A stretch of 64,000 bases of DNA from an uncultured Rhodobacterales bacterium (lineage in GTDB: Bacteria; Pseudomonadota; Alphaproteobacteria; Rhodobacterales; Rhodobacteraceae): positions 102,238 through 166,237 of the forward strand of contig CAZCPY010000001.1 in NCBI GenBank assembly GCA_964499865.1, given 5' to 3'. This document shows positions 5,924 through 50,200 of this stretch, piece by piece (the first letter of the stretch is position 1; every line of letters begins with the position of its first letter). The translations under genes and the position numbers were made by a program. The notes under the pieces are model-generated. The model worked only from the letters and a program-made list of their open reading frames with translations, had not been told where the DNA came from and searched no databases.

Positions 5924-5936
5924 ACTTATGCCACAA
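5924..5936 (-). promoter_or_regulatory. promoter-like motif TTGTGGCATAAGT (minus strand)
   Basis: One of about 12 same-orientation copies of this motif upstream of minus-strand genes. An A7 tract lies about 10 nt upstream. Confidence 0.4.
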
Positions 5937-9242: not shown

Positions 9243-9254
9243 ACTTATGCCACA
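9243..9254 (-). promoter_or_regulatory. promoter-like motif TGTGGCATAAGT
   Basis: Minus strand reads CGAAAAAAGGGCTAAAATGTGGCATAAGTAT, about 70 nt upstream of the start at 9174. Confidence 0.4.
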
Positions 9255-14652: not shown

Positions 14653-14713
14653 TAATTAGGTGTGGTTTTTGTAGTAAAGTACCCAGCCTTGTTAATACAG
14701 GACTGGATACTTT

Positions 14714-14896
14714 TCAATGTTGCTCTGAGAGACCGTTCCCAAGACTACACCCTCCTCCGAATCCATATGTCATCCTGTGCCAGGTTCCAGTCCCGTGACC
14801 ATTTCCACGCCAATTTCTATGTCCACTCCCGTAGCCATTCCCGTCCACGGCTCCGTACGCAGGCCGGGTTCCATATCCATAATCGTTAGTCTTCAA
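14714..14896 (-). CDS. Gly/Tyr-rich small protein, array 1 member 10 (60 aa)
   Basis: TTG start overlaps the upstream TGA (TTGA), with AGAGGAA 7 nt upstream. Product is MKTNDYGYGT…GGGCSLGNGLSEQH. Confidence 0.6.
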   Translation of the reverse strand: MKTNDYGYGTRPAYGAVDGNGYGSGHRNWRGNGHGTGTWHRMTYGFGGGCSLGNGLSEQH

Positions 14897-15093
14897 TGTT
14901 TTATTCCTCTGCCAATTCCGTTTCCTTTGTAACCGCCATACCCGTCCCCGCACCAATCTTCGCCCATAGAACGTATACGCCCCCCACATCCATCCCCGAA
15001 CCCACGCTCATACCAACCACCAAACCAATGCCCGTTCCCGTACCCGTCTCCAACTCCATACTCGTCGCCAGTTCCGAAATTATTAATCTTCAA
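14893..15093 (-). CDS. Gly/Tyr-rich small protein, array 1 member 9 (66 aa)
   Basis: TTGA overlap with GGAGGAG upstream. Product is MKINNFGTGDEYGVGDGYGNGHWFGGWY…YKGNGIGRGIKH, 23 of 66 residues Gly by my count. Confidence 0.65.
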   Translation of the reverse strand: MKINNFGTGDEYGVGDGYGNGHWFGGWYERGFGDGCGGRIRSMGEDWCGDGYGGYKGNGIGRGIKH

Positions 15094-15206
15094 TGTCTTA
15101 CTCCTCCTTTTCCTCTTCCAGTCCAGTAGTGAGGTCCGCACCCATATCCGTACCCGTAACCATCTCCAAACCCATACCCAAACAAACTCCAATGTCCATT
15201 CCCGTA
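15032..15206. repeat. 175-nt segment identical to 38491-38665
   Basis: Base-by-base comparison of the two stretches shows no mismatch. It spans the 3' half of member 8, the junction and the 5' part of member 9. Confidence 0.9.
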
Positions 15207-15287
15207 CCCGCGCCCACCCCCGTACACAACCATATATCTATTTCCGTTTGTAAACCAGCCACCACTTCCGGTGTCACGAATATTCAA
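15090..15287 (-). CDS. Gly/Tyr-rich small protein, array 1 member 8 (65 aa)
   Basis: TTGA overlap. Product is MNIRDTGSGGWF…GNGHWSLFGYGFGDGYGYGYGCGPHYWTGRGKGGVRH. The 3' half is identical to the array 3 copy. Confidence 0.65.
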   Translation of the reverse strand: MNIRDTGSGGWFTNGNRYMVVYGGGRGYGNGHWSLFGYGFGDGYGYGYGCGPHYWTGRGKGGVRH

Positions 15288-15487
15288 TGTTTCACTCCTT
15301 TTCCATTTCCCTTGTAATTCTCGTTTCCGCGCCCGTATCCGCCTCCACACCCAGACCAACCCCCATACCCACACCCATTTCCGTTCATATACCCGTGTCC
15401 GTCCCCCCGCGTTGATCCATATACGTGCCCGTTCCAGCACCCAGTCTTAAGCCACTCTGCACTTTCTTCCTTATTATTAATAATCAA
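15284..15487 (-). CDS. Gly/Tyr-rich small protein, array 1 member 7 (67 aa)
   Basis: TTGA overlap with AAAGGAG upstream. Product is MIINNKEESAEWLKTGCWNGHVYG…YKGNGKGVKH. Confidence 0.6.
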   Translation of the reverse strand: MIINNKEESAEWLKTGCWNGHVYGSTRGDGHGYMNGNGCGYGGWSGCGGGYGRGNENYKGNGKGVKH

Positions 15488-15654
15488 TGTTTCTCTCCTT
15501 TTCCGTTTCCAGTCCAGGTGCAAGGCCAACGCCCATACCCTGCTCCATTCCCATCCCGTCTATCGATCCCGCACCCACGCCCGTACACACGCCCGTATCC
15601 ACGCCCAGTTCCTATTATAAGTCCGGTTCCATATCCATAATCGTTAGTCTTCAA
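15484..15654 (-). CDS. Gly/Tyr-rich small protein, array 1 member 6 (56 aa)
   Basis: TTGA overlap. Product is MKTNDYGYGTGLIIGTGRGYG…TWTGNGKGEKH. Confidence 0.6.
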   Translation of the reverse strand: MKTNDYGYGTGLIIGTGRGYGRVYGRGCGIDRRDGNGAGYGRWPCTWTGNGKGEKH

Positions 15655-15833
15655 TGTTTTATTCCTCTGCCAATTCCGTAGTAACCTTCGGGACCGTTTC
15701 CAGATCCGTTTCCATTTCCGCACCCATACTTGTCTCCATCCCCGCGCTCGTACAAACCACCAAACCAATCCCCATTCCCGAACCCACGTCCATATCCACA
15801 CCAGTTTCCACTTCCGTTGTTATTGATCTTCAA
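15651..15833 (-). CDS. Gly/Tyr-rich small protein, array 1 member 5 (60 aa)
   Basis: TTGA overlap. Product is MKINNNGSGNWCGYGRGFGNGDWFGG…YYGIGRGIKH. Confidence 0.6.
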   Translation of the reverse strand: MKINNNGSGNWCGYGRGFGNGDWFGGLYERGDGDKYGCGNGNGSGNGPEGYYGIGRGIKH

Positions 15834-16000
15834 TGTTTTCTTCCTCTGCCTCTTCCGTAGAAAGTTCCGGTGCCGGCCCCGTATCCAATCCCGTGCCCGT
15901 ATCCAAACAAACTCCAATGTCCAGAACCGCATCCGTCTCCAATCTTGACCCATTCCCAGTCCGTAAATCTGGCGCCACTTCCATTGTCATTAATCTTCAA
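15830..16000 (-). CDS. Gly/Tyr-rich small protein, array 1 member 4 (56 aa)
   Basis: TTGA overlap. Product is MKINDNGSGARFTDWEW…GTGTFYGRGRGRKH, with the same C-terminal tail as array 2 member C. Confidence 0.6.
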   Translation of the reverse strand: MKINDNGSGARFTDWEWVKIGDGCGSGHWSLFGYGHGIGYGAGTGTFYGRGRGRKH

Positions 16001-16191
16001 TGTTTTCTTCCTTTTCCATTTCCATTCCAGTTGTATTGCCCGTGCCCAAAACCACCCCCGTGCCCATTCCAGAATCCATATCCTTTCCCGCCACAGCCAC
16101 CAGACCCGTATCCTCTCCCGGATAAATTTCCGACCCCATGCCAGAGTCCACATGCACTCCGGTTTCCAGTTCCGTAGTCATGAATATTCAA
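15997..16191 (-). CDS. Gly/Tyr-rich small protein, array 1 member 3 (64 aa)
   Basis: TTGA overlap. Product is MNIHDYGTGNRSACGLWHG…QYNWNGNGKGRKH. Confidence 0.6.
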   Translation of the reverse strand: MNIHDYGTGNRSACGLWHGVGNLSGRGYGSGGCGGKGYGFWNGHGGGFGHGQYNWNGNGKGRKH

Positions 16192-16388
16192 TGTTTTCTT
16201 CCTCTACCGTTTCCGATTTCGCTATGATTTATATACCCATGCCTACGCCCATTTCCATATACGTATTTATCTCCAAAGTGGTGTCCATATCCAGTTCCAT
16301 TCCCATACTTATACCATTTCCCATTTCCAAACCCATTTCCGTAGCCATTCTTAGCACCGTCGCCACTTCCGTATTTGTTAATTTTCAT
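16188..16388 (-). CDS. Gly/Tyr-rich small protein, array 1 member 2 (66 aa)
   Basis: ATG start in an ATGA overlap with member 1, preceded by AAGGGAAGGAAACA. Product is MKINKYGSGDGAKNGYGNGFGNGKWY…IGNGRGRKH. Confidence 0.65.
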   Translation of the reverse strand: MKINKYGSGDGAKNGYGNGFGNGKWYKYGNGTGYGHHFGDKYVYGNGRRHGYINHSEIGNGRGRKH

Positions 16389-16540
16389 TGTTTCCTTCCC
16401 TTTCCATTCCCGTCGTGCGAGCCTGACCCGAGCCCATATGCTCGACTTTTAGATCGATTATTTTTACAGGCGCGCCGCTTACGACCGCCTCCATATCCTT
16501 GGCCTGTTCGAGAAAACTTGGTGTCGTAGTTTATTTTCAT
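16385..16540 (-). CDS. basic Gly-rich small protein, array 1 member 1 (51 aa)
   Basis: Not in the ORF track because it is under 60 aa. ATG at 16540. Product is MKINYDTKFSRTGQGYGGGRKRRACKNNRSKSRAYGLGSGSHDGNGKGRKQ, which shares the family N- and C-terminal ends. Shine-Dalgarno signal is weak. Confidence 0.45.
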   Translation of the reverse strand: MKINYDTKFSRTGQGYGGGRKRRACKNNRSKSRAYGLGSGSHDGNGKGRKQ

Positions 16541-16572: not shown

Positions 16573-16599
16573 AGCGCTCCCGATTTTACTCGGGAGCGC
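16573..16599 (-). terminator. hairpin between gene 16605..16928 and array 1
   Basis: AGCGCTCCCG-ATTTTACT-CGGGAGCGC forms a 9-10-bp stem 6 nt after the stop. The U-tract is weak, so it may only attenuate. Confidence 0.45.
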
Positions 16600-16604
16600 G
16601 AATC

Positions 16605-16928
16605 TCACAGCCGCTTTGCCGCGCGCACAACAAGGCACATAGCCTTGAGGCGCCGGCGGCGCGCCTTCGCAGACGGTACAGATTGGAACCCGTACCCGCT
16701 GCGAAGCTGCAGATGCAGCGGCCGCACATACTGCATCAAAGTCGCCCGGTTCTTCACCGTGCGATTCTCCAATGCAACCATGACCGCCTCGAGGATGGTC
16801 ATGGCGTACAGCCGCTGGTGCGGCTTGGTACGTCTGCTGACTTTCGCAGCCCTGCTAAGAGCTGCGACGACCCACGCCGGATCAAGCGGCGCGGTCTTCA
16901 AGCGCTCGAGCGCTTCTGTGTATAGCAT
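16605..16928 (-). CDS. hypothetical protein
   Basis: 107-aa ORF with ATG start. First gene downstream of the promoter-like motif at 17103. Confidence 0.55.
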   Translation of the reverse strand: MLYTEALERLKTAPLDPAWVVAALSRAAKVSRRTKPHQRLYAMTILEAVMVALENRTVKNRATLMQYVRPLHLQLRSGYGFQSVPSAKARRRRLKAMCLVVRAAKRL

Positions 16929-17102: not shown

Positions 17103-17116
17103 ACTTATGCCACAAA
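17103..17116 (-). promoter_or_regulatory. promoter-like motif TTTGTGGCATAAGT
   Basis: Minus strand reads GGAAAATACCGGGTGATTTGTGGCATAAGTTATG within a 255-nt intergenic region. Confidence 0.4.
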
Positions 17117-20800: not shown

Positions 20801-20900
20801 GGTACCTCCTAGTACTTGCAGTTCTGTCGCAATCCTTGCGACGAGGGAGTAAGTAGAATTACCCACTCATTTACTTATGCCACAAATGGGGGTATTTTTT
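20801..20900 (-). promoter_or_regulatory. conserved promoter plus structured 5' leader, copy 1
   Basis: A 100-nt block matches 44110-44209 at 92 of 100 positions. It holds an A-tract, TTTGTGGCATAAGT, two hairpins and the Shine-Dalgarno sequence TAGGAGG. Confidence 0.55.
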
Positions 20901-22003: not shown

Positions 22004-22432
22004 TCAGTCTTTGACTTCTCGAACGACTCCGGCCAGGTCCAACTCTTGTAGACCACTTACGTACACAGCGCTGTTTGCCGGGATGATCAGCGCTTTGTGC
22101 CGAGCGTGGGGCGCGTCAGTATGCACGATGCATACGGATTCGTGCCCGACTGTCAGCTTGAGAAGGACTTTCTCCAGCTGGCAGTTCTTCGGCACCGACG
22201 GGTTGCTGGTCACCGTGAAGCGACCAAGAGCGACGTGGTCACCGTGCGCGCCGGTAGCAACAGAGTATGCAGCATCCGGCAGCTCGTCGGTGATTTCTTT
22301 GGGATCCAGAGGCAGGACGTGGATCATGAGATCACCCTGCCTCGCAATTTGTCCGATTGCTACCTCCGCGCCGCCAAAGGCGGGGTCGTTTCGGATTGCC
22401 GTGGCGATTTGATGGCGTTGTTGTGTTTGCAT
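22004..22432 (-). CDS. hypothetical protein
   Basis: 142-aa ORF with ATG start. First gene downstream of array 2. Confidence 0.55.
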   Translation of the reverse strand: MQTQQRHQIATAIRNDPAFGGAEVAIGQIARQGDLMIHVLPLDPKEITDELPDAAYSVATGAHGDHVALGRFTVTSNPSVPKNCQLEKVLLKLTVGHESVCIVHTDAPHARHKALIIPANSAVYVSGLQELDLAGVVREVKD

Positions 22433-22661
22433 GTTTTTAGAAAAGACTGTGCTAGTTACTGTGCACAGGGTGTTGCGGTTCGCTACTGTGATTTACCGGT
22501 GTGCCTTGCTTTTTAAGCAGTTTATCCGACTCTGACTTGAGGTCAAACATTCTTTGGTTATGTAACCGCTTGCATACCCAAGAACATTCCTACCCCTGTA
22601 CGTATGTTGTTCTGTTCTAAGGCACTGGTCATCGTGTCGGTATACACGACGTCACCTGTGT

Positions 22662-22712
22662 CTAGTTTCGTGCGCGGTCCGACGGCCGCGAGCCTATGGC
22701 ACGAATCTTCAA
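22662..22712 (-). pseudogene. 16-codon remnant of a further array 2 member
   Basis: The usual TTGA junction follows member E, but the frame reads MKIRAIGSRPSDRARN and then stops. Confidence 0.3.
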
Positions 22713-22885
22713 TGTGTATCTGCTTTTCCATTTCCATTCAAATTCGGACTCCAACGCCCATATCCATGTCCGACCCCATTCCCATCCCGTCTCTCGACCC
22801 CGCACCCACGCCTACGCCAACTCCCGTACCCTTGTCCTTTTCCAGATCCACGCCAAACGCCACTTCCGTAGTCATTAATCTTCAA
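22709..22885 (-). CDS. Gly/Tyr-rich small protein, array 2 member E (58 aa)
   Basis: TTGA overlap with AAAGGAG upstream. Product is MKINDYGSGVWRGSGKGQGYG…NLNGNGKADTH. Confidence 0.6.
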   Translation of the reverse strand: MKINDYGSGVWRGSGKGQGYGSWRRRGCGVERRDGNGVGHGYGRWSPNLNGNGKADTH

Positions 22886-23070
22886 TGTTTTACTCCTTTT
22901 CCGTTTCCATTCCTGTTGTGATCCCCATGCCCATACCCGTCTCCATACTTGTCCCCATCCCCATAGCCACTCCCGGAACCGAACCCACTGCGTCTCCCAT
23001 ACCAATTCCCGATTCCGTATCCGCGACCATATTCACACCAATCGCCAGTTCCGTAGTCGTCGATCTTCAA
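22882..23070 (-). CDS. Gly/Tyr-rich small protein, array 2 member D (62 aa)
   Basis: TTGA overlap. Product is MKIDDYGTGDWCEYGRGYGIGNWYG…HNRNGNGKGVKH. Confidence 0.65.
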   Translation of the reverse strand: MKIDDYGTGDWCEYGRGYGIGNWYGRRSGFGSGSGYGDGDKYGDGYGHGDHNRNGNGKGVKH

Positions 23071-23261
23071 TGTTTTCTTCCTCTGCCTCTTCCGTAGAAA
23101 GTTCCGGTGCCGACCCCATGTCCGTCTCCATTTTCAGATTCGGATCCGTTTCCCCAACCGTCCCCATTCCAACTCCCGCCTGCGCGCCCATCTCCGTACC
23201 CATATCCATAACCGTACCCATTTGCGAATCTGTTTCCATTTCCGAAATCGTTAATCTTCAA
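23067..23261 (-). CDS. Gly/Tyr-rich small protein, array 2 member C (64 aa)
   Basis: TTGA overlap. Product is MKINDFGNGNRFANGYGYGYGYGDG…GTGTFYGRGRGRKH. Confidence 0.65.
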   Translation of the reverse strand: MKINDFGNGNRFANGYGYGYGYGDGRAGGSWNGDGWGNGSESENGDGHGVGTGTFYGRGRGRKH

Positions 23262-23452
23262 TGTTTTCTTCCGCAGTCAAGTCGGTTACTGAATTCTCCC
23301 CCTTTTCCTCTTCCGTTCCCATTCGGGTAGGCAGACCCGAATCCATAGCCATTTCCATCCCGATGCCCAGCCCAACTACCAGACCCACATCCGTGCCCAT
23401 TTCCATACAAATATCCGGACGTACATCCATATCCACAGTTCTTAATATTCAA
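23258..23452 (-). CDS. Gly/Tyr-rich small protein, array 2 member B (64 aa)
   Basis: TTGA overlap. Product is MNIKNCGYGCTSGYLYGNGHGCGSGSW…FSNRLDCGRKH. Confidence 0.6.
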   Translation of the reverse strand: MNIKNCGYGCTSGYLYGNGHGCGSGSWAGHRDGNGYGFGSAYPNGNGRGKGGEFSNRLDCGRKH

Positions 23453-23598
23453 TGTTTTCCTCCTATGCCTCCTTCTCTCCAGGTGCCAGGTCCACCATAC
23501 CCATACCCGCACCAACCACCATACCAATGCCCGTTCTCGTTTCTATACCAATATACAGGGTCGCGCAGTTCGCCGTATCCGCGATTGTTAATCTTCAA
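23449..23598 (-). CDS. Gly/Tyr-rich small protein, array 2 member A (49 aa)
   Basis: TTG at 23598 is preceded by GGAAAAGGAGGAAAACA. Product is MKINNRGYGELRDPVYWYRNENGHWYGGWCGYGYGGPGTWREGGIGGKH. Confidence 0.6.
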   Translation of the reverse strand: MKINNRGYGELRDPVYWYRNENGHWYGGWCGYGYGGPGTWREGGIGGKH

Positions 23599-23688
23599 TG
23601 TTTTCCTCCTTTTCCGTTCACACCAAACGACGTGTTCCTTTCTAAAGTAAATTAAACTGAACAAAGTCCGTAATATACGGCTCACATA

Positions 23689-23700
23689 TCTTATGACATA
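23689..23700 (-). promoter_or_regulatory. promoter-like motif variant (TATGTCATAAGA) upstream of array 2
   Basis: Minus strand reads GAGAATAATACAGAGATATATGTCATAAGATATGTGAG, about 90 nt upstream of the first array 2 start. Confidence 0.35.
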
Positions 23701-23757
23701 TATCTCTGTATTATTCTCAATACAATATGAGTACGTTCTGTTGCACCGACCATACCA

Positions 23758-23767
23758 ATCATAAGTT
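23758..23767 (+). promoter_or_regulatory. + oriented ATCATAAGTT motif in the divergent intergenic region
   Basis: Same CATAAGT core in + orientation, about 30 nt upstream of the + gene at 23796. Confidence 0.3.
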
Positions 23768-23795
23768 AGTAGGCCACATTAAATAGGTAGCTAAG

Positions 23796-24173
23796 TTGGA
23801 GACGTTTATTAAACAGGCTAAGCGATGTTGGAAGGGTTACAAGCCGGTACCCGGTAAGAAAGCGTATGCTGAAGGTTCTTGCGCGCCAATAGAGAAGAAA
23901 GCCGCCAAGGAGAAGACGCAAGCCGAGCTCATAAAGCTTATGTTGCGAGTTAAGCATAGACGCGAGGCAGCGGCCGCTAAACCTAGAGCTAAACCAGGTG
24001 TGATAAAGAAGGCGTCCGACGCGCTAGGATTAGGGCGCGCCATAGGTGCAAGTACTGTTGTTGGAGGTTATAATCAGAATATGCGCGGCTCAGACCGCGC
24101 CCGTCTTTTAAGCGAGCGCGCCAAGAAGTCTCCGTACTTTCAGAGACTATACGCTAAGCTCGACAACCCGTGA
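23796..24173 (+). CDS. hypothetical basic protein
   Basis: TTG start is supported by the N-terminus METFIKQAK, which parallels MNTFIKQAR of gene 27436. First gene of the + module. Confidence 0.55.
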   Translation: METFIKQAKRCWKGYKPVPGKKAYAEGSCAPIEKKAAKEKTQAELIKLMLRVKHRREAAAAKPRAKPGVIKKASDALGLGRAIGASTVVGGYNQNMRGSDRARLLSERAKKSPYFQRLYAKLDNP

Positions 24174-24182
24174 TTCAATACT

Positions 24183-24548
24183 ATGGATAACATCGAAAAA
24201 GGCCTACGCCAAGCCTTTCAAAAGCAGGCGACCACACAAGTTCCCTCCCTAGAACAACACTTTCTATCTCTCGTAGAGAATGAAGGTCAAGTTAAGCAGG
24301 CCGCTGGTCCTCAAATCGGACCTCTTATTCGACGCGCTAAAGCGCAGCCCGCTCGTATGGACGCTGATGTTGCACCTAGATCAGGAATCCTAGATAAGGT
24401 CAGAGGAGCTGCTGGGCACGCTGTCGAATATGCTCAACAAAATCCTGAGATTGTCGGCGGCGGGGCCGCCGCTGCATTAGGTCTCGGCGCTGGCGCGCTT
24501 ATGCTGCGCGCCCGTGCTCGGCGTCGGCGCCAAGCCCAACAAGGCTGA
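24183..24548 (+). CDS. membrane-anchored protein (paralog 1 of 3)
   Basis: The C-terminal 60 aa are identical to those of the next gene (Ala/Gly transmembrane segment plus RARARRRRQAQQG tail). Confidence 0.6.
   Translation: MDNIEKGLRQAFQKQATTQVPSLEQHFLSLVENEGQVKQAAGPQIGPLIRRAKAQPARMDADVAPRSGILDKVRGAAGHAVEYAQQNPEIVGGGAAAALGLGAGALMLRARARRRRQAQQG
24364..24544. repeat. 181-nt perfect direct repeat, copy 1
   Basis: Identical base for base to 25119-25299. Encodes the shared C-terminal anchor. Confidence 0.9.
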
Positions 24549-24556
24549 GGTAGTTA

Positions 24557-25303
24557 GTGCTCACTATGCGTACAGGATTCGCGAAGGCCGCGGGAATGAC
24601 TGGACCTGGAGGCGCGGCGGCTGAGTCGGGTGTTGCCGGCGTCACAGGCCTGGCGTCGGCAGCTCGCCGTGTATTAAGAACGCCTGAGTGGTCCCATTCT
24701 CCTCCTCCCCCTGGTTATGGTTACAAGGCCTGGCTCAGTCAAAACGACACTCACGACCATAACTTCCGTTCGGACATGGAAGCGTACGATTGGCTTACGC
24801 AAAGCCCGCTAAATTTGAGAAACCAGGCAGAAACAGCGGCTAGAATGCGAGAAAGAGTAAAACAGCATGTGGAACAGGCGCCCACGCCCGACAGAACGTC
24901 CGCAGCAACTTTAAAAACACCTGAAGTGACAGGTCGAGGTCTTGATGCCGCGCCTAGAGGCCTATCGGATCACATCCATTCTGGGCATCCGTACTTTCAC
25001 CCGAGGGCATCAACCGCTAGTCAAGCATTAACTAGGCGCAACACCAGCGATGTGGTGCTTAGGCCCAAGACTCCGACTAGCGACATACACGTGGACGTCC
25101 TTCCCCGGAACCCGGCATCTGATGTTGCACCTAGATCAGGAATCCTAGATAAGGTCAGAGGAGCTGCTGGGCACGCTGTCGAATATGCTCAACAAAATCC
25201 TGAGATTGTCGGCGGCGGGGCCGCCGCTGCATTAGGTCTCGGCGCTGGCGCGCTTATGCTGCGCGCCCGTGCTCGGCGTCGGCGCCAAGCCCAACAAGGT
25301 TGA
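24557..25303 (+). CDS. membrane-anchored protein (paralog 2 of 3)
   Basis: GTG at 24557 lies 5 nt after GAGGTAG, and the ATG at 24566 is an alternative. Shares AGVTG…A-x-RR-x-L and TLKTPE-x-TG motifs with paralog 3. Confidence 0.6.
   Translation: MLTMRTGFAKAAGMTGPGGAAAESGVAGVTGLASAARRVLRTPEWSHSPPPPGYGYKAWLSQNDTHDHNFRSDMEAYDWLTQSPLNLRNQAETAARMRERVKQHVEQAPTPDRTSAATLKTPEVTGRGLDAAPRGLSDHIHSGHPYFHPRASTASQALTRRNTSDVVLRPKTPTSDIHVDVLPRNPASDVAPRSGILDKVRGAAGHAVEYAQQNPEIVGGGAAAALGLGAGALMLRARARRRRQAQQG
25119..25299. repeat. 181-nt perfect direct repeat, copy 2
   Basis: Identical to 24364-24544. Confidence 0.9.
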
Positions 25304-25310
25304 TACACTT

Positions 25311-26087
25311 ATGTCGTCTAATTTTACGCGTCTAACTAAAGCAGCTAATGCACGTAACGCGGCGGTGGCTGGGCTAGGTGTTGCCGGCGTCACAGGCGTG
25401 GCGCTGGCATCTCGTCGTGCATTAGATAGGCACATCTACGGCTCTAGATTGAACCATAGTCCTCATAGTCCCGCACCGACTTTAAAAACGCCTGAAGCGA
25501 CCGGTGTAGACGTCATTCCCCGGAACCCGGCGTCTAGTGCGGCATTGCGGCATCATTGGGCGCAGGCGACTGGTCGTAGCGGCGCTGCACCGCCTAAATC
25601 AGGGATCCAAGGTGAATCAACGCCTGAAGCGACCGGTCGTATCGTCGATGCCACGCCTACAAGCACACCTGCTCCTAGCGTCTTTGACCACATCTCTTCT
25701 GTTGCTAAAGCGAATACTGAAAGGGCAGCTACGGGAGTCGCCAAAGCGAAAGCGCGAGTTGCTGAAGCACTTAGTGAACATAATGGTGTGGGTAGCCTCA
25801 AGGGCATTATGGATAGGTATCGAGCCGCGCCGTACGGAACCAAGCATCTGTCCCAGCCTCAAGGAAAAGGCGTGGATCTCGCGGACGCTATGAAGCCTAC
25901 GCCAGATGCAGAAAAACTTCTTAGCTCGCTACACAACAAAGGCTTGTTTGGTCACATCTCTCCTGAGCATGCAGTAGGTTACGGCGCAGCCGCCGCTGGC
26001 GCGGCCGGTTTAGCATACTACGCTAAGAAACGCTGGGATAAGTTCCAGAAAAATAGACAACTTCAAAAGCAATACGGTCTACGTTAA
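25311..26087 (+). CDS. membrane-anchored protein (paralog 3 of 3)
   Basis: Start trimmed to the ATG at 25311 (MSSNFTRL), just after the upstream stop. C-terminal Ala/Gly hydrophobic segment. Confidence 0.6.
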   Translation: MSSNFTRLTKAANARNAAVAGLGVAGVTGVALASRRALDRHIYGSRLNHSPHSPAPTLKTPEATGVDVIPRNPASSAALRHHWAQATGRSGAAPPKSGIQGESTPEATGRIVDATPTSTPAPSVFDHISSVAKANTERAATGVAKAKARVAEALSEHNGVGSLKGIMDRYRAAPYGTKHLSQPQGKGVDLADAMKPTPDAEKLLSSLHNKGLFGHISPEHAVGYGAAAAGAAGLAYYAKKRWDKFQKNRQLQKQYGLR

Positions 26088-38408: not shown

Positions 38409-38552
38409 TTAGTGTTTTATTCCCTTTCGGCGCCAGGTCCCGTCACCGTTACTCAGCTCTCCGTACCCGTTTCCTTCCACAGTCCCATAACCGTTCCCGT
38501 ACCCGTCTCCAACTCCATACTCGTCGCCAGTTCCGAAATTATTAATCTTCAA
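38409..38552 (-). CDS. Gly/Tyr-rich small protein, array 3 member 2 (47 aa)
   Basis: TTGA overlap. Product is MKINNFGTGDEYGVGDGYGNGYGTVEGNGYGELSNGDGTWRRKGIKH. Ends with TAA and has no following junction. Confidence 0.6.
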   Translation of the reverse strand: MKINNFGTGDEYGVGDGYGNGYGTVEGNGYGELSNGDGTWRRKGIKH

Positions 38553-38665
38553 TGTCTTACTCCTCCTTTTCCTCTTCCAGTCCAGTAGTGAGGTCCGCAC
38601 CCATATCCGTACCCGTAACCATCTCCAAACCCATACCCAAACAAACTCCAATGTCCATTCCCGTA
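38491..38665. repeat. 175-nt segment identical to 15032-15206
   Basis: Perfect identity read directly. Same orientation, 23,459 nt apart. Confidence 0.9.
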
Positions 38666-38728
38666 TCCACGACCATATCCGTCCCCACTTATGAATCTGT
38701 TTCCATTTCCGAAGTCGTTAATCTTCAA
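38549..38728 (-). CDS. Gly/Tyr-rich small protein, array 3 member 1 (59 aa), mosaic
   Basis: TTG is preceded by GGAAAAGGAGAAAAACA. The N-terminus MKINDFGNGNRF matches array 2 member C. The C-terminal half GNGHWSLFGYGFGDGYGYGYGCGPHYWTGRGKGGVRH matches array 1 member 8. Confidence 0.65.
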   Translation of the reverse strand: MKINDFGNGNRFISGDGYGRGYGNGHWSLFGYGFGDGYGYGYGCGPHYWTGRGKGGVRH

Positions 38729-40418: not shown

Positions 40419-40430
40419 ACTTATGCCACA
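40419..40430 (-). promoter_or_regulatory. promoter-like motif TGTGGCATAAGT
   Basis: Lies only 8 nt upstream of the ATG at 40410, which would imply a very short or absent leader. Confidence 0.35.
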
Positions 40431-43791: not shown

Positions 43792-44106
43792 TCAAAGCCG
43801 GACGCGATGTTCGAAGCGTCGCGGCTGGCCGCCTCTCGACGATATCCACAACCCCTGGTCGGAGTTGTAGAAATCGGTGGTCCTGCGCGCCACTGCGCGC
43901 AACCACTGCACCGCCTCAGTGACGACCGTCCACAGATCGGCGTCGCCACGTAAGCTTGCGGTCGCACGCAAGCGGCAAATCAACGTTACCAACCGGCTTT
44001 CAGCCAGTTGGTCTCCGTTCTTTGCCGATGCGAGCAGCTCCTTCAGCTGCTCGATCACGGCCGCCCTGTCAAAAGGGATCAGCGGTGAGTATTCCGGTGC
44101 GAACAT
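43792..44106 (-). CDS. hypothetical protein (start trimmed)
   Basis: The ATG at 44106 (MFAPEYSPL) is preceded by TAGGAGGTACCCGT. The upstream part of the track ORF is the conserved leader. Confidence 0.5.
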   Translation of the reverse strand: MFAPEYSPLIPFDRAAVIEQLKELLASAKNGDQLAESRLVTLICRLRATASLRGDADLWTVVTEAVQWLRAVARRTTDFYNSDQGLWISSRGGQPRRFEHRVRL

Positions 44107-44109
44107 ACG

Positions 44110-44209
44110 GGTACCTCCTAGTACCTGTAGTTCTGTTGCAGTCCTTGCAACGAGGGAGTAGGTAGAATTACCCACTCATTTACTTATGCCATAAATGAGG
44201 GTATTTTTT
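44110..44209 (-). promoter_or_regulatory. conserved promoter plus structured 5' leader, copy 2
   Basis: Matches 20801-20900 at 92 of 100 positions. Core motif here is TTTATGGCATAAGT. Confidence 0.55.
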
Positions 44210-44271: not shown

Positions 44272-47200
44272 ATGGCTTATACATTAAACGGTGAGCGAGT
44301 TCAACTTGTAATCGACGACAATAGCGGCGGAGCTATAACCGAGATTGCTATAGACGGAGTTAATCTTGTAAACTCTGCAAATAAGTTCCGGCAAGTACAG
44401 TTCGGTTTAACGTGGTCTGATAAGACCGGCTCTTTTTTTCTTAGTGAGTCGGGCAATTCTCCCGCTGGCCCGGCTGCACCGCCTACAGCTGAACTTGTAT
44501 CGGCTGTAGTTGAAGGTGATACGTTAATTACGACGACGAAACTAGGCTATCCACTACCGAGTACAACTACCGCACTGGGCTCATTTTCGGTCGCGGAGAC
44601 GACTCTCGAGAAGCGCGTTACGGTTGACTATCTAGGGAATCCTAACATAATTAGACTCGAATCGGTATTTAATCCCGCAGCGAGTACCAAACTTGGAACG
44701 GCTAGGTTATTATTTTCAGCCTCAACTATTGACGCTCTAAATAGATACTTCTACTATGATCCGACAGTTTTGGCGGAGCCGTTTCAAATTTCTGTAGGCT
44801 CTGTGGCGCCGGCTACGTTTTCTACCGCTAACGATGCCGGCATAATCTACTCTAATCAAAACGGGAGTTTAGCGCTCGGTGTGTACTCCAGAGGCGCGAT
44901 ATCGACTAATGTGCCTCGACGCTTCACGCTGTTGGCTCCGGCGGCTTCTCCGGGCGAAGGCGGCACCGGACTATTCGCCGGAACCATGGTCGTCGCCCAA
45001 GAGACTCAGCCAGGCTCTGGGCTATCTGCCGACAAGTTTTGGAATGAGCAGTTTGTCGTGGTCGGCACATACGCTGAAGTCGCATCAGCTTTTAAGCAGA
45101 TTTTTACAGGCATCCCGCTATCAGCGACGGCGCCGGCCGCCGGTCCCGCAGCGTACCTGAGTATCGTCGCATTCCCTTTACAAATTGCTACCGGCACTAC
45201 GTTTAGTGTTGTCGCGCAGGCTCTGGATGAGAACGGCTTAGTAGACGTGTCGTATACGCAGCCGTTTTCTCTCACGAGTTTTGGGCCGGCGGCGCTCTCT
45301 GGACCTAATACGGCTACACCGACGAACGGGACCGCTGTGTTTTCTGGCGTGTCTGCGACCGCTCTCGGTACGTATTTCGCGCAAGTCACATCTGGCTCTC
45401 TCGTGCCAGCGTCCCATACTCTTCAGGTTGTAAATCCGGTACCAGTTTTACTATTCACAGATCCAACGACCTTTACAACTTCGGCTGTACCAGCGACAAT
45501 CGGCCTAGGAGGTCAATCCTTCCTCGCGGGAATGACCGCGCGTATAACTGGTACAGGAATTACCACTCCCATCACTGTTCCGTGCACTGTGCTTACGGCG
45601 ACAACCGCTACATTTGTACCTCCCGCTGAGATGCAGGTTGTCGGCACGTTTACTATCTCTCTACAAAACATCGGGTCAGCCGGCCTGTTCTCAAATACCA
45701 AGACCATTTTGGTATCAGCCGCTCCTGTCAACCCCGTAGCCAATGAGCTGGTAATCGACGTAATAACCACGTCCTTAACCGTACCGGCCTCTGTTACGCT
45801 ATCGATTCTTGCCATAGACTCGACTCAATTCGACGCAGCATCTAAAGTGATTGACGTCGATGTCGACGGAACTATAACGTTAACAGCCCAGACACTTCCT
45901 GCGGGCGCCTCCGTCACTGGCCTAGGTGCGGTACCTATGGTTAATGGCGTAGCGCAAGTTACTCTTACTACAAACTTCGACGGCACGTTTGTATTCCGGG
46001 CTGACGGTACGGCCCTCAGCTTAGGCACAAAAGACACGCCGGAAATACAGATTGTTAATCCTTCGCTGATCACCCTAAATAGCGTATCCCCGGCATCTAT
46101 CCCGGAAGACAGCCCAGCCACGACGATCACGGTGTCTAGCACACAGCCGGGACTTCCTCAAGGGAATACGACTATTCGCGTTAACGGGCTGGCGCTACCG
46201 ACGACGAGCGTTAATTTTAACACAGCGACCGCGGTAATTCCGGAATCGATGCTCAAGAATCCCGGAACTCTAAGTGTCGACGTGGTTAGCACGAATCCGG
46301 TAACGACTTCTAACTCTATAGCACTAACGATCACTGACGTAATTGAGCCGCCGGCAGCACTAGAGTTCACATCAGTACCAAGTTCGGCAGTATTTGCAGG
46401 CTCCCCGTTCCAAGTTCAAGTTCGAGTTTTGGATACGGATGGAAAGGCGGCTGGACAGGTGCAAGACCTAACTATCACGGTCGCACTGCAGACGCCTGGT
46501 TCGGCGCAACTCAGCGGGTACTTTTCGAAGACAGTAAACAGCAATATCGTTGTTTTTGATGATCTATCTATAGATACCGAAGGAACATACGTATTGACGG
46601 CCACAGCTGTTGGATTGACATCTGCTGAGTCGCCAGACATTACGATCTCGATTCCGGCGGCCCAAATAGTGGCAATTAATCCCGCCAGTGTTACACCTGC
46701 TTTTTTCTCTGATGAGGGTTCTCCGGCATTTGGGCTAACTTATTGGGGTGACGTACCCAACCAGCTAGGTATAAATTTCAACTTCTGGAATATCTACGAA
46801 GACTTTTCGTACTGTTTCCGTGGCAACCTGCGGTATGCGACGACTAAGGCAGTTGGGTTCAACGGTGACGGCCTCGGCACGTCTCCCGATCCAGTTCTAG
46901 ATAGTCTGGGTTGGCCTACCGTACTAAATGGTGAGTATGCTACCGTCCGGTTATTTACCGGCATGAGCGTGCCTCAGCTATATCTAGACGGTACGAACCG
47001 CGGGCTACTGAAGGCGTATAGACCTGGCCGGTACTTATACGAAGTCTGGACCAACACCGGGGTCGCTAATCCAGTCGCCTATTTCGCAGGTGACGGAGAC
47101 TGGGAGCAGCTCTCTTCTGGGTCATTGACAGCCCCGGCTGTGTATCGAGTCACAGTGGCTGAGGCCGATAGAACGAATCAGGGCATCGAGATGGTCCTAT

Positions 47201-50200
47201 TCGCTAACGGTGCAGATCTGAAGATGACAAATTTGATCATCTATCACGAGAATGACGCTGCGTATAAGAATCAGATCTACTGGGATCCTGAACTACAAAC
47301 ACAGTTAAAGCACTTCTGTCGTGGTCGAGACATGGAGGTGAAGCACCTTAATGAGCTCAGCGCGCTTATTTCGAATCTATCACAAGATCCGGCCTTGACG
47401 TGGGCTACCTGGGACGGATACGGCCCTCCGCCATCGGTTATCGTCGCACTGTGTAACTTGGCTGATTTGGATTACCATTTCTGCATTCCCGCCGCGGCAG
47501 CTAGGAACGTATCGTACATCGACTACTGGGCTACGTATATTCGAGACAATCTGAATCCGAAGCTTCGGGTTATACCCACAGTTGGTAACGAAATCTGGAA
47601 CGGCCCGGGTAACGTCGAATTCGATACGTTTAAGTCAGCTTACGTATTCCAGAGTATTCACGCGCCGGCCCTCGGATTCTCTTCGGATTTCACAGGACGT
47701 CTTAAAGCTCAAGCACACTGCCAGCGGCTAGTTCACGACCGCTTTGCAGCTATATTTGCTGGTCAGACTCATCGAGTTGTGAATGCTGTTGAAACACAGA
47801 ACGGCGGCAACGGAATGAGCATAATTCTGGACCATCCGTATGGGCCGGATGGTCAAACGCTCGGTCAGCGCGGCGTTGAAATACTTATAGCCGGCTACTT
47901 CCCTACCGGCGTAGATACGATCGCCTGGCATCAGTACAACCCGGCCTGGTCTACTGTGCAAAAGCAGGCGTTCTTCGAAACGGTCATCTCTGCATACACG
48001 CAGGCGTATACAGACGCCATCAACTCTGCGCGGATCATTGCGGACCAGGTTGGGCCGGGTAAAGCGTATCCCAATTGCTCGCTGGGCTCGTACGAGAAGT
48101 TCTTCCAAGAGGGTGCGCCGTCTCTCGCTGCGGTCCCTGATTGGTCGGCTGGTGCGAGCTACTTCCTCGGTGCGCCCGTTTATTGGCAGGCCGTCGGAGC
48201 GTCAAATAAGACTATACACATCTCTAATGTAGCTAATCCGACTGTCGGTACATTTATTCCCTCACAGTGGACTAACACTGGAGCGATCGTATGGGAAGAC
48301 TACACGTCGCAACAAAGAATAAACGCAACTGTCGGTATGGCGACGTTAAAGTCTATCGACACTTATCGAGGACTGATCGAGAGCGCCGTGGCGCAGTGGA
48401 GAGCACTTACCGACAAGTGCCTAACTATATACAAACTATTCTCGCGTCCGGATAGTCGGAGCGGCTTCAGGTCACTTGGCGCGGAACGTAACGAGCCGTA
48501 CACCCAGTCGACCACGTTTACTTATACCGGTCCGTACGCTCCGAATCAGGCAATTTTGAATACGACAATAAGGCCCAACGGTATTATTCCAGATCCGCTC
48601 GGGTCTGGAGGCTCCGGCGGTCAATTTACATTAACGGGTTTAAAGTTCCGTTCTGATACAGTATTGACTGTGGATGGTGTTGTTACGCCCGCTGTGTACG
48701 TCGATCCTGGATTAATGCTGTTTACGCCCCTCCCGGCTCAACAGGCGGTTGGATTACACCAGGTTATCGCTAAGAACCCGGGCGCGCCAGATTCAAATTC
48801 GGTAACGTACGAAGTGTTAAGTGTTGCTCCTAATCCTGAAGCTGATGTCGGTGTGGCTGTGTTATTCCAAGCAATCGAAGCGCCGAATAACCCCACATCA
48901 TTTCACGCCCCGGAAACCTTATATCTCGTTGGGGCCGCCTTCGATTCCGGTTTCGGTACGGATCCGTTATCAGCACCTAGCGGTATAGATGATGATTATA
49001 CGGAGGCGACAGTAACATGGATTCAAAAGCCGGCAGATACCACGCTAACCGATTTCAGTGTCCCTCTAGTCGCAGGTGTTTTGGGTCCGATCGTACTAAA
49101 TACCAAGGCTGACGGAATCTATCAAGCTGAGGTTACCTTTACTGGCGCGGGTGTGCCGGACGTCACAGGCACGACAGGAACCGTGACCGTGACTAACCCA
49201 GTACCGACGATAGACTCGATTGTACCTAATCTGTTTCAGGCGACCTCAAACCCTGTTACGCTTCAAATAACGACCTCTGGATTCTTTCCGCCAACTGGCG
49301 CAAATGTAATCATAAATGAGCAGATCGTCTTGTCTTCTACGACGGTATCGGCGAATAATAAGTCACTATCGGTCGTATTACCGTCGAGCGTTTCATCCGC
49401 GCCGGGGATCAAGAATGTAGTTGTGACGGTCGACAATTCTGTAGGCGGTGCCCCAGCCTCGTCGAACGCACTGTCTTTCGAGGTCACATCGCCTCCGCCA
49501 GGAGTAGAGAATCTTCCTGCCAGCATTGTTGTAGGTCCTACCAGCTACCAGCGGCTGCTCCCGGCCGTCGGCCCCGTTATAACTAGCGCTACTCCTCTAC
49601 GAGACGCGCTGCGTACGATCGGTAAGTATTCTTCAGTTATAACTCCGGATAATACGCAACTGTTCACGCAGCAGGTAAATGGCGAGAATGCGTTCGAGGT
49701 GGTAGAGATTCTAGCCGGCGCGTACGGTAACATCATATTCTCCACAAATAACAATGGCCCTCACGATGTTGCAATAGGCGCACCTTTAAGCGCTTCGGCG
49801 CCGCTACTGATTCGAGCCAGACGAGTTTCGGGTGTTGCTGATAAGGTGGTTATTCGCCCCTCGGACTTTACTGACCCGATTCCGGCCAGTATCTTTATTA
49901 CCGGTAATTCGAACCTAAGCTTCGTTCACTGGTACGACGTTACTGTATTTGGACACCAACTATCATGCTTGGCCACGGATAACAAGCTGTTGACTCCGAC
50001 CGGCGTGTTAGGTAATCCGGCTCAGGCGTTCCGTAGTTGGAAGTGGGTTCGGTGCAATTTCCTTGGTAATTGGGACCCGCGCATCGTAGCGCTCGGCTCT
50101 GACCGGTTTGTGCGCGCACCTTTAATCGGAACATCGCAGGCGCAGTGGAACGCCGCAGGCGTCGAAATCATTGGCGGTGATAAGTCCTCATGGACCACAA

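Follow-up and report, generated by a model that had tools for sequence, protein, structure and literature searches.

What is made from array 2, a run of small minus-strand ORFs that overlap end to start, and does selection act on its peptides or on its nucleic acid? The array lies in the window, the whole 64,000-nt stretch of DNA that was analyzed. It consists of five minus-strand ORFs (23598-22709; 49, 64, 64, 62, and 58 aa), with a 16-codon stub behind the last. Array 2 is very likely transcribed from the minus strand as one unit in which each of the five mini-genes has its own stop, a reading made without transcript or ribosome-profiling data. Its features are listed here in the direction of transcription; L075 belongs to a diverged lineage described below.

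23690..23698, minus strand: promoter-like TGTCATAAG, TGn plus CATAAG, extended -10-like; 3-mismatch variant of TGTGGCATAAGT
23668..23680, minus strand: small leader hairpin CCGTATATTACGG; L075 keeps the hairpin with a loop change only
23599..23620, minus strand: leader copy of the junction block, Shine-Dalgarno (SD) motif AGGAGG (23610-23605); remnant C-terminus ..NGKGGKH and stop, no ORF upstream
23449..23598, minus strand: member 1, 49 aa; TTG start; TGA stop overlaps the next start
23258..23452, minus strand: member 2, 64 aa
23067..23261, minus strand: member 3, 64 aa; final ~56 nt plus junction 98% identical to array 1 15880-15825
22882..23070, minus strand: member 4, 62 aa; near-identical strains differ by N>K and one synonymous change
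22709..22885, minus strand: member 5, 58 aa; C-terminus ..GNGKADTH, SD motif lost
22662..22712, minus strand: terminal junction copy and 16-codon stub MKIRAIGSRPSDRARN, stop TAG; past MKI unlike any member

All of the array 2 junctions (6/6) read CATTGA, in which a TTG start overlaps a TGA stop. The leader carries the junction block ACGGAAAAGGAGGAAAACA-TTG in the absence of a full upstream ORF, and its incoming frame (...CSV, stop, FTLERNTSFGVNGKGGKH, stop) is closed by TAA. An earlier note, made from the sequence alone, had proposed five ORFs with these coordinates, lengths, and TTGA junctions, and all of this held exactly. Its observation that the junction sequence is present in the leader without an upstream peptide also held, while its claim that the preceding leader frame is closed by TAG failed. 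The note had further described a decayed sixth member. This held only in part: the stub is real, but its likeness to members ends with the first three codons of the junction. The array 2 of the diverged lineage likewise ends in a junction and an unrelated 12-codon stub. The stub is better read as the terminal junction copy of the array, an array of n cores having n+1 junctions. For the stretch from the stub to the next gene, the presence of a conserved small ORF or RNA was considered and rejected, as indels between the lineages break the frame and predicted hairpins are not common to both. On the other side of the array, a divergent intergenic region of ~200 bp, which contains the promoter-like element, separates it from a plus-strand gene starting at 23796.

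The window contains two further arrays of the same kind.

14714..16540, minus strand: array 1, ten members; the first has an ATG start, the second an ATGA overlap, the others TTGA
14676..14713, minus strand: stable, terminator-like hairpin directly 3′ of array 1 (z = -4.9; z = -7.1 in L076)
38409..38728, minus strand: array 3, two members; remnant member C-terminus before them, decayed junction CACTAA at the end

With 10, 5, and 2 window members in arrays 1, 2, and 3, respectively, these ORFs very likely form a lineage-specific family of about 17 to 21 members. They are carried by a large, previously unseen phage. The hairpin 3′ of array 1 is kept in the diverged lineage with altered stem bases.

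The members show clear sequence signs of coding and translation, and we consider it likely that they are translated; no transcript, ribosome-profiling, or proteomic data are available. Over 997 codons the coding frame contains no stop, compared with ~59 expected when bases were shuffled within codon positions (shuffle minimum, 40), and the two alternative frames contain 17 and 46 stops. Across members, the third codon position has maximal entropy. Indels between strains are multiples of 3 (6 nt and 12 nt). The ORFs are intact in the members of both lineages, with 88 Tyr, 37 Trp, and 23 Cys codons standing one mutation from a stop. The earlier proposal of a family of small minus-strand cistrons therefore held, supported by the stop-free frame, the codon-position entropy, and the diverged lineage. 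Glycine codons are atypical: GGA and GGG make up 80% of them in members versus 33% in the ordinary genes of the phage, and other codon families do not show this shift. Such usage is atypical of high expression and hints at an additional constraint at the nucleic-acid or tRNA level. It is also possible that the TTG starts signal low expression, given that the other genes of this phage begin with ATG and are SD poor.

Other readings of the same DNA were tried and rejected. The ATG-started frame often picked by gene callers (METDSQMG...) is interrupted by one stop in each unit, lacks an SD, and shows high entropy at its second position. Pro-rich plus-strand ORFs, such as 23261-23650, mirror the low-complexity sequence and show no start or stop regularity. 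Recoding of UGA (code 4 or 25) is not supported, as TGA ends more ordinary genes than any other stop (36/64) and code 11 leaves the long ORFs uninterrupted. Against -1 frameshifting into a polyprotein, no canonical slippery heptamer is present at the junctions, and the stops are kept in both lineages. A CRISPR-like repeat-spacer array was also rejected, since the "spacers" have one common coding frame and composition.

The ~50-nt junction very likely has three roles: it holds the SD within the last 4 to 5 codons of the upstream member, provides the stop/start overlap, and serves as a tract of homology between arrays. The junction 13-mer AAACATTGAAGAT (≤2 mismatches) occurs 18 times in the window versus 1.6 expected (0/100 shuffles), and 17 of the 18 matches fall in three clusters on the minus strand. 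An SD core precedes 15/17 members but only 7/47 ordinary genes (p = 1e-7), and TTG starts are found in 15/17 members compared with at most 5/64 ordinary ORFs. Arrays 1 and 2 each end in a junction with a decayed SD and no full member after it. No conserved RNA pairing was detected (0 consensus pairs in the 16 junctions compared), nor any Rfam match at E ≤ 1. In the N-terminal motif, conservation lies in the protein, and codons differ synonymously (for example, ATT/ATC, GAT/GAC, and GGC/GGT). The suggestion in the earlier note that the block is conserved at the nucleic-acid level, as a ribosome binding site or recombination module, is thus borne out by the SD enrichment and by identical DNA that straddles junctions.

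Stop/start overlaps of 4 nt (ATGA type) are common in phage and bacterial operons, and the arrays resemble such translationally coupled cistrons in their NTGA overlap and in the SD placed inside the end of the upstream ORF. Internal junctions all read CATTGA or CAATGA. Ordinary genes of the same phage also use ATGA overlaps (31757/31760, 53662/53665, and 56538/56541). The arrays differ from the usual coupled cistrons in that TTG serves as the start in 15 of 17 members, up to nine overlaps follow one another between paralogues, and the junction doubles as a recombination homology tract; coupling itself is inferred. The overlap is TTGA in the phage of the window and ATGA in its sister lineage: members start with TTG in arrays 1, 2, and 3 of the window and with ATG in the diverged arrays 1 and 2.

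A CATAAG promoter-like motif had been proposed upstream of array 2. CATAAG is present at 23695-23690 with TGT before it, and the proposal held in the sense that the site weakly matches a motif that recurs in the window, TGTGGCATAAGT; its promoter activity is inferred. TGTGGCATAAGT has six exact copies in the window, all on the minus strand.

17103..17114, minus strand: exact TGTGGCATAAGT, upstream of the transcription unit with array 1 at its end
5924, 9243, 20873, 40419, and 60534, minus strand: remaining exact TGTGGCATAAGT copies, found by motif search

Compared over 12 positions, the array 2 site TATGTCATAAGA has three mismatches. The orthologous L075 site, which reads TGTGGCATAAGA and lies within a leader that is ~88% conserved, has one. 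CATAAG alone was rejected as an enriched motif, since TCATAAGA (≤1 mismatch) gave 41 matches versus 46 expected; only the longer TGTGGCATAAGT is enriched.

Comparison of related phage genomes, which the earlier note had proposed as a check on copy number, revealed variation in both copy number and content. Array 1 has 10 members in the window versus 13 in relatives (12 by pattern search plus one more), and array 3 has 2 versus 3 in near-identical strains; the flanks of the relatives that differ in copy number are 99.5 to 100% identical. SNP density is ~3.5-fold higher in arrays (8/2290 nt) than in flanks (7/6940 nt; p = 0.016). Substitutions between strains are few, and most change an amino acid. 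Arrays 1 and 3 share a 175-nt block that is 100% identical, and blocks of 55 to 56 nt shared by different arrays straddle junctions. Members are mosaics exchanged between arrays. The arrays also contain internal hexamer and 12-mer repeats. Because the arrays are repetitive, differences between strains may in part be assembly artefacts, especially for L012, a 1.2-kb contig.

Conservation of reading frames in a related genome, the absence of which the note had named as refuting its proposal, was found in the diverged lineage. Flanks in L075 are ~79 to 82% identical to the window, and a neighboring protein is 78% identical. At the array 2 locus L075 keeps the ORF architecture, with four ORFs of 52 to 66 aa and a stub joined by ATGA. 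These ORFs have the same composition and N-terminus as the window members, while blastn detected no similarity between L075 and the window array cores. L076 covers the array 1 end of the diverged lineage. Arrays 1 and 2 are thus retained there; the array 3 region is not covered. The divergent comparison rests on this single lineage.

The members encode (Gly-X)n peptides of 47 to 67 aa with X drawn mostly from Tyr, Asn, Arg, Lys, Asp, His, Ser, and Trp, preceded by a short conserved N-terminus of ~9 residues (M-K/N-I-N-D-Y/F-G-x-G). Their composition is 31.5% G, 8.9% N, 8.8% Y, 7.2% R, and 3.7% W. Glycine recurs at i and i+2 198 times versus 92 expected (z = +16), a pattern shared by L075, and adjacent GG is depleted (26 versus 93 expected). 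AlphaFold2 modeling gave a pLDDT of 38. The peptides are predicted to be disordered, although low AlphaFold2 confidence is no proof of disorder.

No relatives of the peptides were found in Pfam, NCBIfam, PHROG, or PDB, and the searches revealed no homologues beyond this lineage. NCBIfam gave no relevant match at E ≤ 1, Pfam only sub-threshold low-complexity matches, and a PDB profile search only linker-like chance matches. Against 50,697 phage records, megablast with 8 kb matched none, and tblastn with one member gave only a chance match. A 17-member profile retrieved two matches from a 5.8-billion-protein index, both array 3 ORFs of a near-identical strain, and only the window's own member from 1.84 billion cluster representatives. 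Junction DNA patterns yielded nothing or single chance matches in IMG/VR, GTDB genomes, and JGI metagenomes, and a neighboring 142-aa protein had no match in IMG/VR or JGI metagenomes. A literature search returned nothing relevant on comparable phage arrays of glycine-rich mini-genes.

Known glycine-rich proteins offer likenesses but no family in which to place the peptides. Sulfur globule proteins SgpA-C (PF17228) are likewise bacterial, small, Gly/Tyr-rich, low-complexity, and structural, and carry export signals; membership in PF17228 was not met (1/17 members, E = 0.77, 11.1 bits versus a gathering threshold of 26.7 bits). A collagen-like (G-X-Y)n pattern is excluded by depletion of G-G pairs at lag 3 (28 versus 90 expected) with enrichment at lag 2, and RTX GGxGxD nonapeptide repeats are not met, GG being depleted and Pfam giving no match. 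T-even gp38 adhesins alternate glycine-rich motifs (a polyglycine-II sandwich) with hypervariable segments, and the arrays resemble them as phage-encoded conserved Gly-rich sequence with hypervariable stretches exchanged by recombination. However, gp38 is a single protein of ~260 aa at the tail-fiber tip, whereas the arrays consist of separate ORFs of 50 to 65 aa in which glycine recurs at period 2 and GG is depleted. A polyglycine-II or gp38-type domain was not supported, as PDB profile matches were by chance only and a pLDDT of 38 is too low for a fold search.

In eukaryotes, high-glycine-tyrosine keratin-associated proteins, mussel foot protein 3, and nematode NLP/CNC peptides are Gly/Tyr-rich families that work through composition, in matrix, adhesion, coacervation, or antimicrobial action. 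By analogy, the phage peptides resemble them in being 5 to 7 kDa, rich in Gly, Tyr, Asn, Arg, and Trp, and encoded in tandem by multigene families with many variants. The eukaryotic proteins come from another domain of life, carry signal peptides for secretion, and have no homology to the phage peptides, which lack a signal peptide and are encoded in an early/middle gene region. Prion-like or FUS-type domains share predicted disorder and evenly spaced aromatic residues and arginine in a Gly/Asn/Ser background; the phage products differ as free-standing mini-proteins with a strict dipeptide period, and any phase behavior is inferred.

From these properties we infer a function, in a proposal that could as well prove wrong as right: the peptides would be "sticky" mini-proteins that act through their composition, are translationally coupled, and are made at an early stage of infection. 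A promoter of the TGn-CATAAG class would fire ~85 nt upstream of array 2, and AGGAGG would help ribosomes begin at the first TTG. Ribosomes would stop at each UGA and reinitiate on the overlapping UUG, and this serial termination-reinitiation would yield five peptides in comparable amounts. The peptides may then act in bulk, through composition and pattern and not through a unique fold, which is the weakest step of the proposal. Alternating glycine would place all side chains on one face of an extended chain, and evenly spaced aromatic residues and arginine may lead to self-association (as a condensate or silk-like sheet), nucleic-acid binding, or both, in early/middle infection. Rapid turnover of the arrays would follow from weak constraint on exact sequence combined with slippage and recombination in low-complexity DNA. 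Function is argued here from composition and pattern only. A bolder reading, which we raise merely as a possibility, is that ~20 (Gly-X)n mini-proteins, shuffled by recombination and made by serial termination-reinitiation, co-assemble into a silk-like sheet or an aromatic/arginine condensate that reorganizes the infected cell, for example as a replication scaffold or compartment or as a nucleic-acid coat. If true, the eukaryotic Gly/Tyr-rich matrix and adhesive families would have a viral counterpart among prokaryotes, and phages a host-takeover factor of a new class.

Four rival explanations were weighed against this proposal. The peptides could be a library of precursors for modified or exported (RiPP- or bacteriocin-like) peptides, with one or both ends as recognition sequences, the core as the product, and maturation by an enzyme of the host or from another part of the phage genome. 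Tandem small genes with conserved ends and hypervariable cores fit this idea, as they do prochlorosin and Nif11/NHLP-type arrays, which likewise comprise many small tandem paralogues with conserved termini. The peptides are also rich in aromatic residues, Asn, Asp, and Cys, typical cross-linking substrates in triceptide- or darobactin-type chemistry, and genes for a sulfotransferase-domain protein (61458-62216) and an alpha/beta-hydrolase are present in the window. We nevertheless regard it as unlikely. Pfam and PHROG scans found no radical-SAM, YcaO, lanthionine synthetase, ATP-grasp, P450, peptidase, or ABC-exporter domain among ~64 window ORFs, a negative limited to the 64-kb window, with ~123 kb of the ~189-kb genome outside it. 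No NCBIfam or Pfam precursor family matched even at E ≤ 1. In contrast to RiPP arrays, members have neither a long leader nor a cleavage motif: the conserved N-terminus spans only ~9 residues, without a double-glycine leader, and C-terminal conservation is largely explained by the SD motif. The strict period-2 glycine over the whole core, a regular low-complexity (GX)n, is unlike known RiPP cores. Equally doubtful is a role as recombination-diversified sticky binders or decoys, each member with its own host or defense protein as target, turned over in an arms race. Their composition is like that of antibody binding loops (Tyr, Trp, Gly, Ser, Asn, Asp, Arg), array content is fully replaced between lineages whose flanks are ~79 to 82% identical, members are mosaics, SNP density is ~3.5-fold that of the flanks, and most of the few substitutions between strains change an amino acid. 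However, rapid change in low-complexity DNA needs no selection for diversity, the substitutions are far too few to support a dN/dS test, no target is known, and binding loops do not need strict (GX)n regularity.

Selection could instead act at the nucleic-acid or translation level, with the peptides as by-products of a purine-rich, C-poor RNA, of G-rich nontemplate DNA acting as a recombination or R-loop hotspot, or of a sink for ribosomes or GGA/GGG-reading tRNA-Gly. In its favor are the Gly-specific GGA/GGG shift (80% versus 33%), the strong strand skew of the arrays (GC skew down to -0.34), G3 tracts that are 4-fold denser in arrays, with all three canonical G-quadruplex motifs of the window in array 1, and junctions conserved at the DNA level. 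This explanation is very unlikely: the absence of stops over 997 codons is confined to one frame, the N-terminal motif is conserved as protein despite synonymous differences, the start/stop architecture outlasts complete turnover of the cores, array 2 has no canonical G-quadruplex motif, and neither an Rfam match nor conserved pairing was found. The family might also be nearly neutral and self-expanding, translated but dispensable and kept by duplication, slippage, and gene conversion. Internal hexamer and 12-mer repeats, copy number that varies among near-identical strains, and restriction of the family to one rare lineage would be expected in that case. All ORFs are intact in both lineages despite many near-stop codons, however, and the diverged lineage retains its loci (arrays 1 and 2) while the SD motif, overlap architecture, and period-2 pattern are all maintained, which makes neutrality improbable.

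If the peptides are made, they constitute a class of phage gene product without a catalogued relative: dozens of alternating-glycine mini-proteins, expressed through cistrons that overlap in series, from three reshuffled loci. They would add a composition-driven, possibly material- or condensate-forming, takeover strategy to the phage repertoire. The arrays would also provide a natural model of repeated termination-reinitiation on near-cognate UUG starts and a compact case of concerted evolution across distant arrays. Gene callers gave most member ORFs the wrong frame or start, an annotation blind spot that leaves such families nearly invisible in protein databases.

Small minus-strand genes with the same promoter motif surround the arrays; ThyX, an exonuclease, MazG, and Cpn10 are among them. 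The genes neighboring the arrays also lie on the minus strand.

Array 2, the feature under study, is real and non-random. It is one of three minus-strand tandem sets of glycine-rich mini-genes (members), in which variable cores lie between copies of a conserved junction where the stop of one member overlaps the start of the next. A junction 13-mer (≤2 mismatches) occurred 18 times in the window versus 1.6 expected, and its matches grouped into three minus-strand clusters, the three arrays. The features are as follows.

23598 down to 22709, minus strand: array 2, five ORFs of 49, 64, 64, 62 and 58 aa
22712-22662, minus strand: sixth junction of array 2 and a 16-codon frame (the stub)
16540-14714, minus strand: array 1, ten members, the first starting with ATG and the second with an ATGA overlap
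38728-38409, minus strand: array 3, two members

Each array 2 ORF starts with a TTG that overlaps the stop before it by two bases, its TG also opening that TGA (CAT-TGA versus TTG-AAG). An earlier note had claimed five array 2 cistrons, and their sizes and positions held exactly on ORF listing and on re-reading of the minus strand over 22400-24000. Its claim of a truncated sixth member held only in part: the junction and stub are present but represent the terminal junction copy, each array being n cores flanked by n+1 junction copies. Its observation that the leader carries the junction block without an upstream ORF was confirmed; the incoming leader frame opens only past a TAA and reads ..NGKGGKH*. 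The overall interpretation given there was essentially right.

The reading frame chosen in that note contained 0 stops in 997 codons, versus ~59 (minimum, 40) after base shuffling within codon positions; for array 2 alone, ~18 stops are expected in 292 codons. The other two frames contained 17 and 46 stops. Base entropy was minimal at codon positions 1 and 2 and maximal at position 3. The array ORFs are thus very likely coding in this frame, and the data strongly support minus-strand mini-genes whose open frame is under selection, in the absence of expression data. The frequent choice of gene callers (ATG..., METDSQMG...) lies in the +1 frame, which is closed once per unit and lacks a ribosome-binding site, and was rejected.

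Alignment of 16 junctions revealed a ~50-nt conserved block, GGAAAnGGnAnAGGAGnAAAACA-TTG-AAGATTAAYGAYTWCGGAAnTGG, with no consensus RNA pairing across them. A Shine-Dalgarno (SD) core was found 5 to 20 nt upstream of the start in 15/17 members versus 7/47 ordinary ATG genes (p = 1e-7). The Gly codon that forms the SD is GGA at every internal junction, and the SD is decayed in the final member of array 1 and in that of array 2 (GGAAAAGCAGATACA and GGTCTCTCAGAGCAA), neither of which is followed by a full member. The N-terminal motif is kept as protein, with synonymous differences (ATT/ATC, GAT/GAC, GGC/GGT). Together, these patterns suggest that C-terminal conservation reflects mainly the ribosome-binding site and N-terminal conservation mainly the peptide. 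DNA blocks that straddle junctions are also shared: one of 175 nt, common to arrays 1 and 3, is 100% identical, and others of 55 to 56 nt, repeated inside array 1 or shared by arrays 1 and 2, are 98 to 100% identical. The SD counts and shared blocks bear out the suggestion in the earlier note that the block is conserved at the nucleic acid level, as a ribosome-binding site or recombination module. There is strong support for a junction that unites ribosome-binding site, stop/start overlap and recombination homology.

The 142-aa protein encoded just downstream of array 2 had one homologue, 78% identical, in 5.8 billion proteins. The contig encoding it, L075, is ~79 to 82% identical to the window on both flanks of array 2, and blastn detected no similarity in the stretch that those flanks enclose. 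The L075 locus nevertheless contains four ORFs of 52 to 66 aa and a 12-codon stub. These ORFs have the composition of the window members, and their N termini keep the motif (MNIKDYGTG, MKLYGHGRG, MNISARGNG and MTINAFGDD). The -1 stop/start overlap is kept as CAATGA (..Q stop, ATG start), and CAATGA also precedes the last array 1 member on L076, a second contig of the same sample. Since ORFs, motif and overlap persist without core similarity, the array architecture outlasts complete core turnover. Relatives lacking reading-frame conservation would have refuted the original reading; L075 and L076 show the opposite, in a comparison that rests on one diverged lineage only.

Turnover was also evident among near-identical contigs, whose flanks are 99.5 to 100% identical to the window. 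Copy-number variation, a check proposed in the earlier note, was seen for array 1 (10 members in the window versus 13 in relatives, 12 by pattern search plus one more) and array 3 (two versus three). In array 3 of the window, the second member arose as an in-frame fusion through a 173-nt deletion, and the first has a 12-nt indel in a tract that was converted. Array 2 kept the same five members across six contigs, with two amino acid changes and one synonymous change. SNP density was ~3.5 times higher inside arrays than outside (p = 0.016, small numbers). TTG is the start codon of 15/17 window members, and ATG that of all 5 seen in the diverged lineage (four in L075, one in L076); this difference indicates concerted evolution across loci 7 to 15 kb apart. 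There is strong support for cores that turn over fast while the frame around them is conserved, with the qualification that every sequence compared comes from metagenomic assembly of repetitive DNA. The 1.2-kb contig L012 (Logan ERR3494954) matches the window at 100% identity from 22913 down and has other members upstream of member 5. Its positions 1-264 hold two members absent from the window and from L001/L003 (..FGDGVKDWNKIGSGYGFGLGSKKHEGNGKGVKH and MKIHAYGIGDWYGAGDGRGYADGDGSGKGHGSGRGGKYGFGQYNWNGNGKGVKH), joined to array 2 member 5; this reflects either a genuine swap of cassettes at a junction or a chimera that arose when the repeat was assembled.

Members consist of G (31.5%), N (8.9%), Y (8.8%), R (7.2%), K (5.5%), D (4.7%), H (4.4%), S (4.2%) and W (3.7%), with Ala, Leu, Val, Pro, Gln and Met almost missing. 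Most members have a net charge between 0 and +8, and no hydrophobic N-terminal stretch was found. The alternation of glycine is strict: pairs of G two residues apart (i and i+2) occurred 198 times versus 92 expected (z = +16), GG occurred 26 times versus 93 expected, and lag 3 was depleted. The same spacing recurs in the diverged lineage. AlphaFold2 on the 17-member alignment gave a pLDDT of 38. Members matched nothing in Pfam, NCBIfam, PHROG families or PDB sequences; two large protein libraries held no match outside this phage lineage, and pattern and neighbour searches returned nothing from IMG/VR, JGI metagenomes or GTDB genomes. Core Gly codons are GGA/GGG in 80% of cases versus 33% in ordinary genes, with the remaining codon families unshifted; tRNA partitioning, unstructured purine-rich mRNA or a slippage origin are possible reasons. 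G3 tracts are ~4 times denser in arrays than in the window overall, and its only three canonical G-quadruplex motifs (16065-16039, 15376-15350 and 15221-15201, minus strand) are all in array 1.

CATAAG by itself was not enriched. The 12-mer TGTGGCATAAGT, however, has six exact copies, all on the minus strand, and 16 matches with ≤2 mismatches versus 3.9 expected. The sites are listed below.

5924-5935, 9243-9254, 17103-17114, 20873-20884, 40419-40430 and 60534-60545, minus strand: exact copies of TGTGGCATAAGT, each with an A-run upstream
23690-23698, minus strand: TGT+CATAAG of the array 2 promoter-like site TATGTCATAAGA, a 3-mismatch variant of TGTGGCATAAGT

The CATAAG motif claimed upstream of array 2 is present, as a weak variant of a recurrent element; its L075 orthologue is TGTGGCATAAGA, in a ~88% conserved leader. 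The 12-mer may represent a class of promoters (TGn + CATAAG) that is specific to this phage and serves minus-strand small-gene regions, promoter activity being inferred from sequence. A stable hairpin (z = -4.9) closes array 1; the diverged lineage has it with changed stem bases (z = -7.1), and a further CATAAG site follows it. These putative promoters and the hairpin are consistent with minus-strand transcription.

Other elements were observed. A ~100-nt repeat (~92% identical; 20801-20900 and about 44100-44193, minus strand), upstream of two different genes, starts with the promoter-like motif (..TGGCATAAGTAAATGAGTGGGTAATTCTAC..). A strong G+C-rich hairpin (16574-16600, minus strand; z = -5.5) between a 107-aa gene (16605-16928) and the first array 1 member might be an attenuator, partial terminator or processing site. 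The ~230-nt non-coding stretch from the array 2 stub to the next gene (window 22433-22665, minus strand; L075 6212-6457) folds unusually well in L075 (z = -5.5) and weakly in the window (z = -2.0), with no hairpin predicted in common.

We propose that one promoter would drive an array, and that ribosomes would initiate de novo only at its first SD-TTG, with serial termination-reinitiation at every UUGA. This is the expression logic of ordinary translational coupling, here inferred, which the arrays would use serially and with UUG starts. With least support, the peptides may be expressed alongside early or middle genes and act collectively through composition and one-face-glycine geometry, by self-association (condensate or silk-like sheet) and/or nucleic acid binding.

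Other explanations remain possible. Multi-precursor RiPP loci have a similar layout, with conserved ends and a hypervariable core, and members could be RiPP-like or bacteriocin-like precursors; however, the arrays fail the tested defining features, with no maturase, leader or family match found in 64 kb, although about 123 kb of the genome is unseen. Members might instead form a diversified binder or decoy repertoire, function at the nucleic acid or tRNA level, or belong to a near-neutral, self-expanding family. The closest proteins in composition are eukaryotic Gly/Tyr-rich keratin-associated proteins, mussel foot protein 3 and nematode NLP/CNC peptides; bacterial sulfur globule proteins are likewise near. 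These are analogies without homology, and against PF17228 (sulfur globule), the sole relevant HMM, members scored far under threshold. The searchable literature yielded no account of a phage system like this one. The family fits no known family or system and is likely of a new kind, with a function that is inferred rather than proven.

The window is part of a large tailed phage, as inferred from sequence alone. It encodes a baseplate-J/wedge protein, SNF2-type helicase, exonuclease, AAA ATPase, ThyX, MazG and Cpn10, and two of its ORFs reach 1774 and 2503 aa. A 189,225-bp ENA contig represents a near-identical strain; no near relative was found among 50,697 phage records, and the best protein matches (~25 to 36% identical) were to Salmonella phage Arash, Pseudanabaena phage PA-SR01 and Bacillus phage G. 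Ordinary genes end most often in TGA, and the standard genetic code therefore holds. Just 7/47 ordinary genes have an SD motif and many are linked by ATGA overlaps, the arrays being the exception; the host may initiate translation largely without SD.

No Pfam family is recorded in contig tables for the 2503-aa ORF (44272-51783, plus strand), and the ORFs next to it, 446 and 768 aa long, matched neither Pfam nor PHROG. The phage also encodes a sulfotransferase-domain protein (61458-62216) and a BD-FAE/alpha-beta-hydrolase protein (62521-63444), both on the minus strand; a link to Tyr-rich peptides is conceivable but purely speculative. Adjacent ORFs at 24183-24548 and 24557-25303 (plus strand) have a common ~60-aa C-terminal module (..DVAPRSGILDKVRGAAGHAVEYAQQNPEIVGGGAAAALGLGAGALMLRARARRRRQAQQG), glycine-zipper-like and then Arg-rich, and the next ORF (25269-26087) has a similar end.
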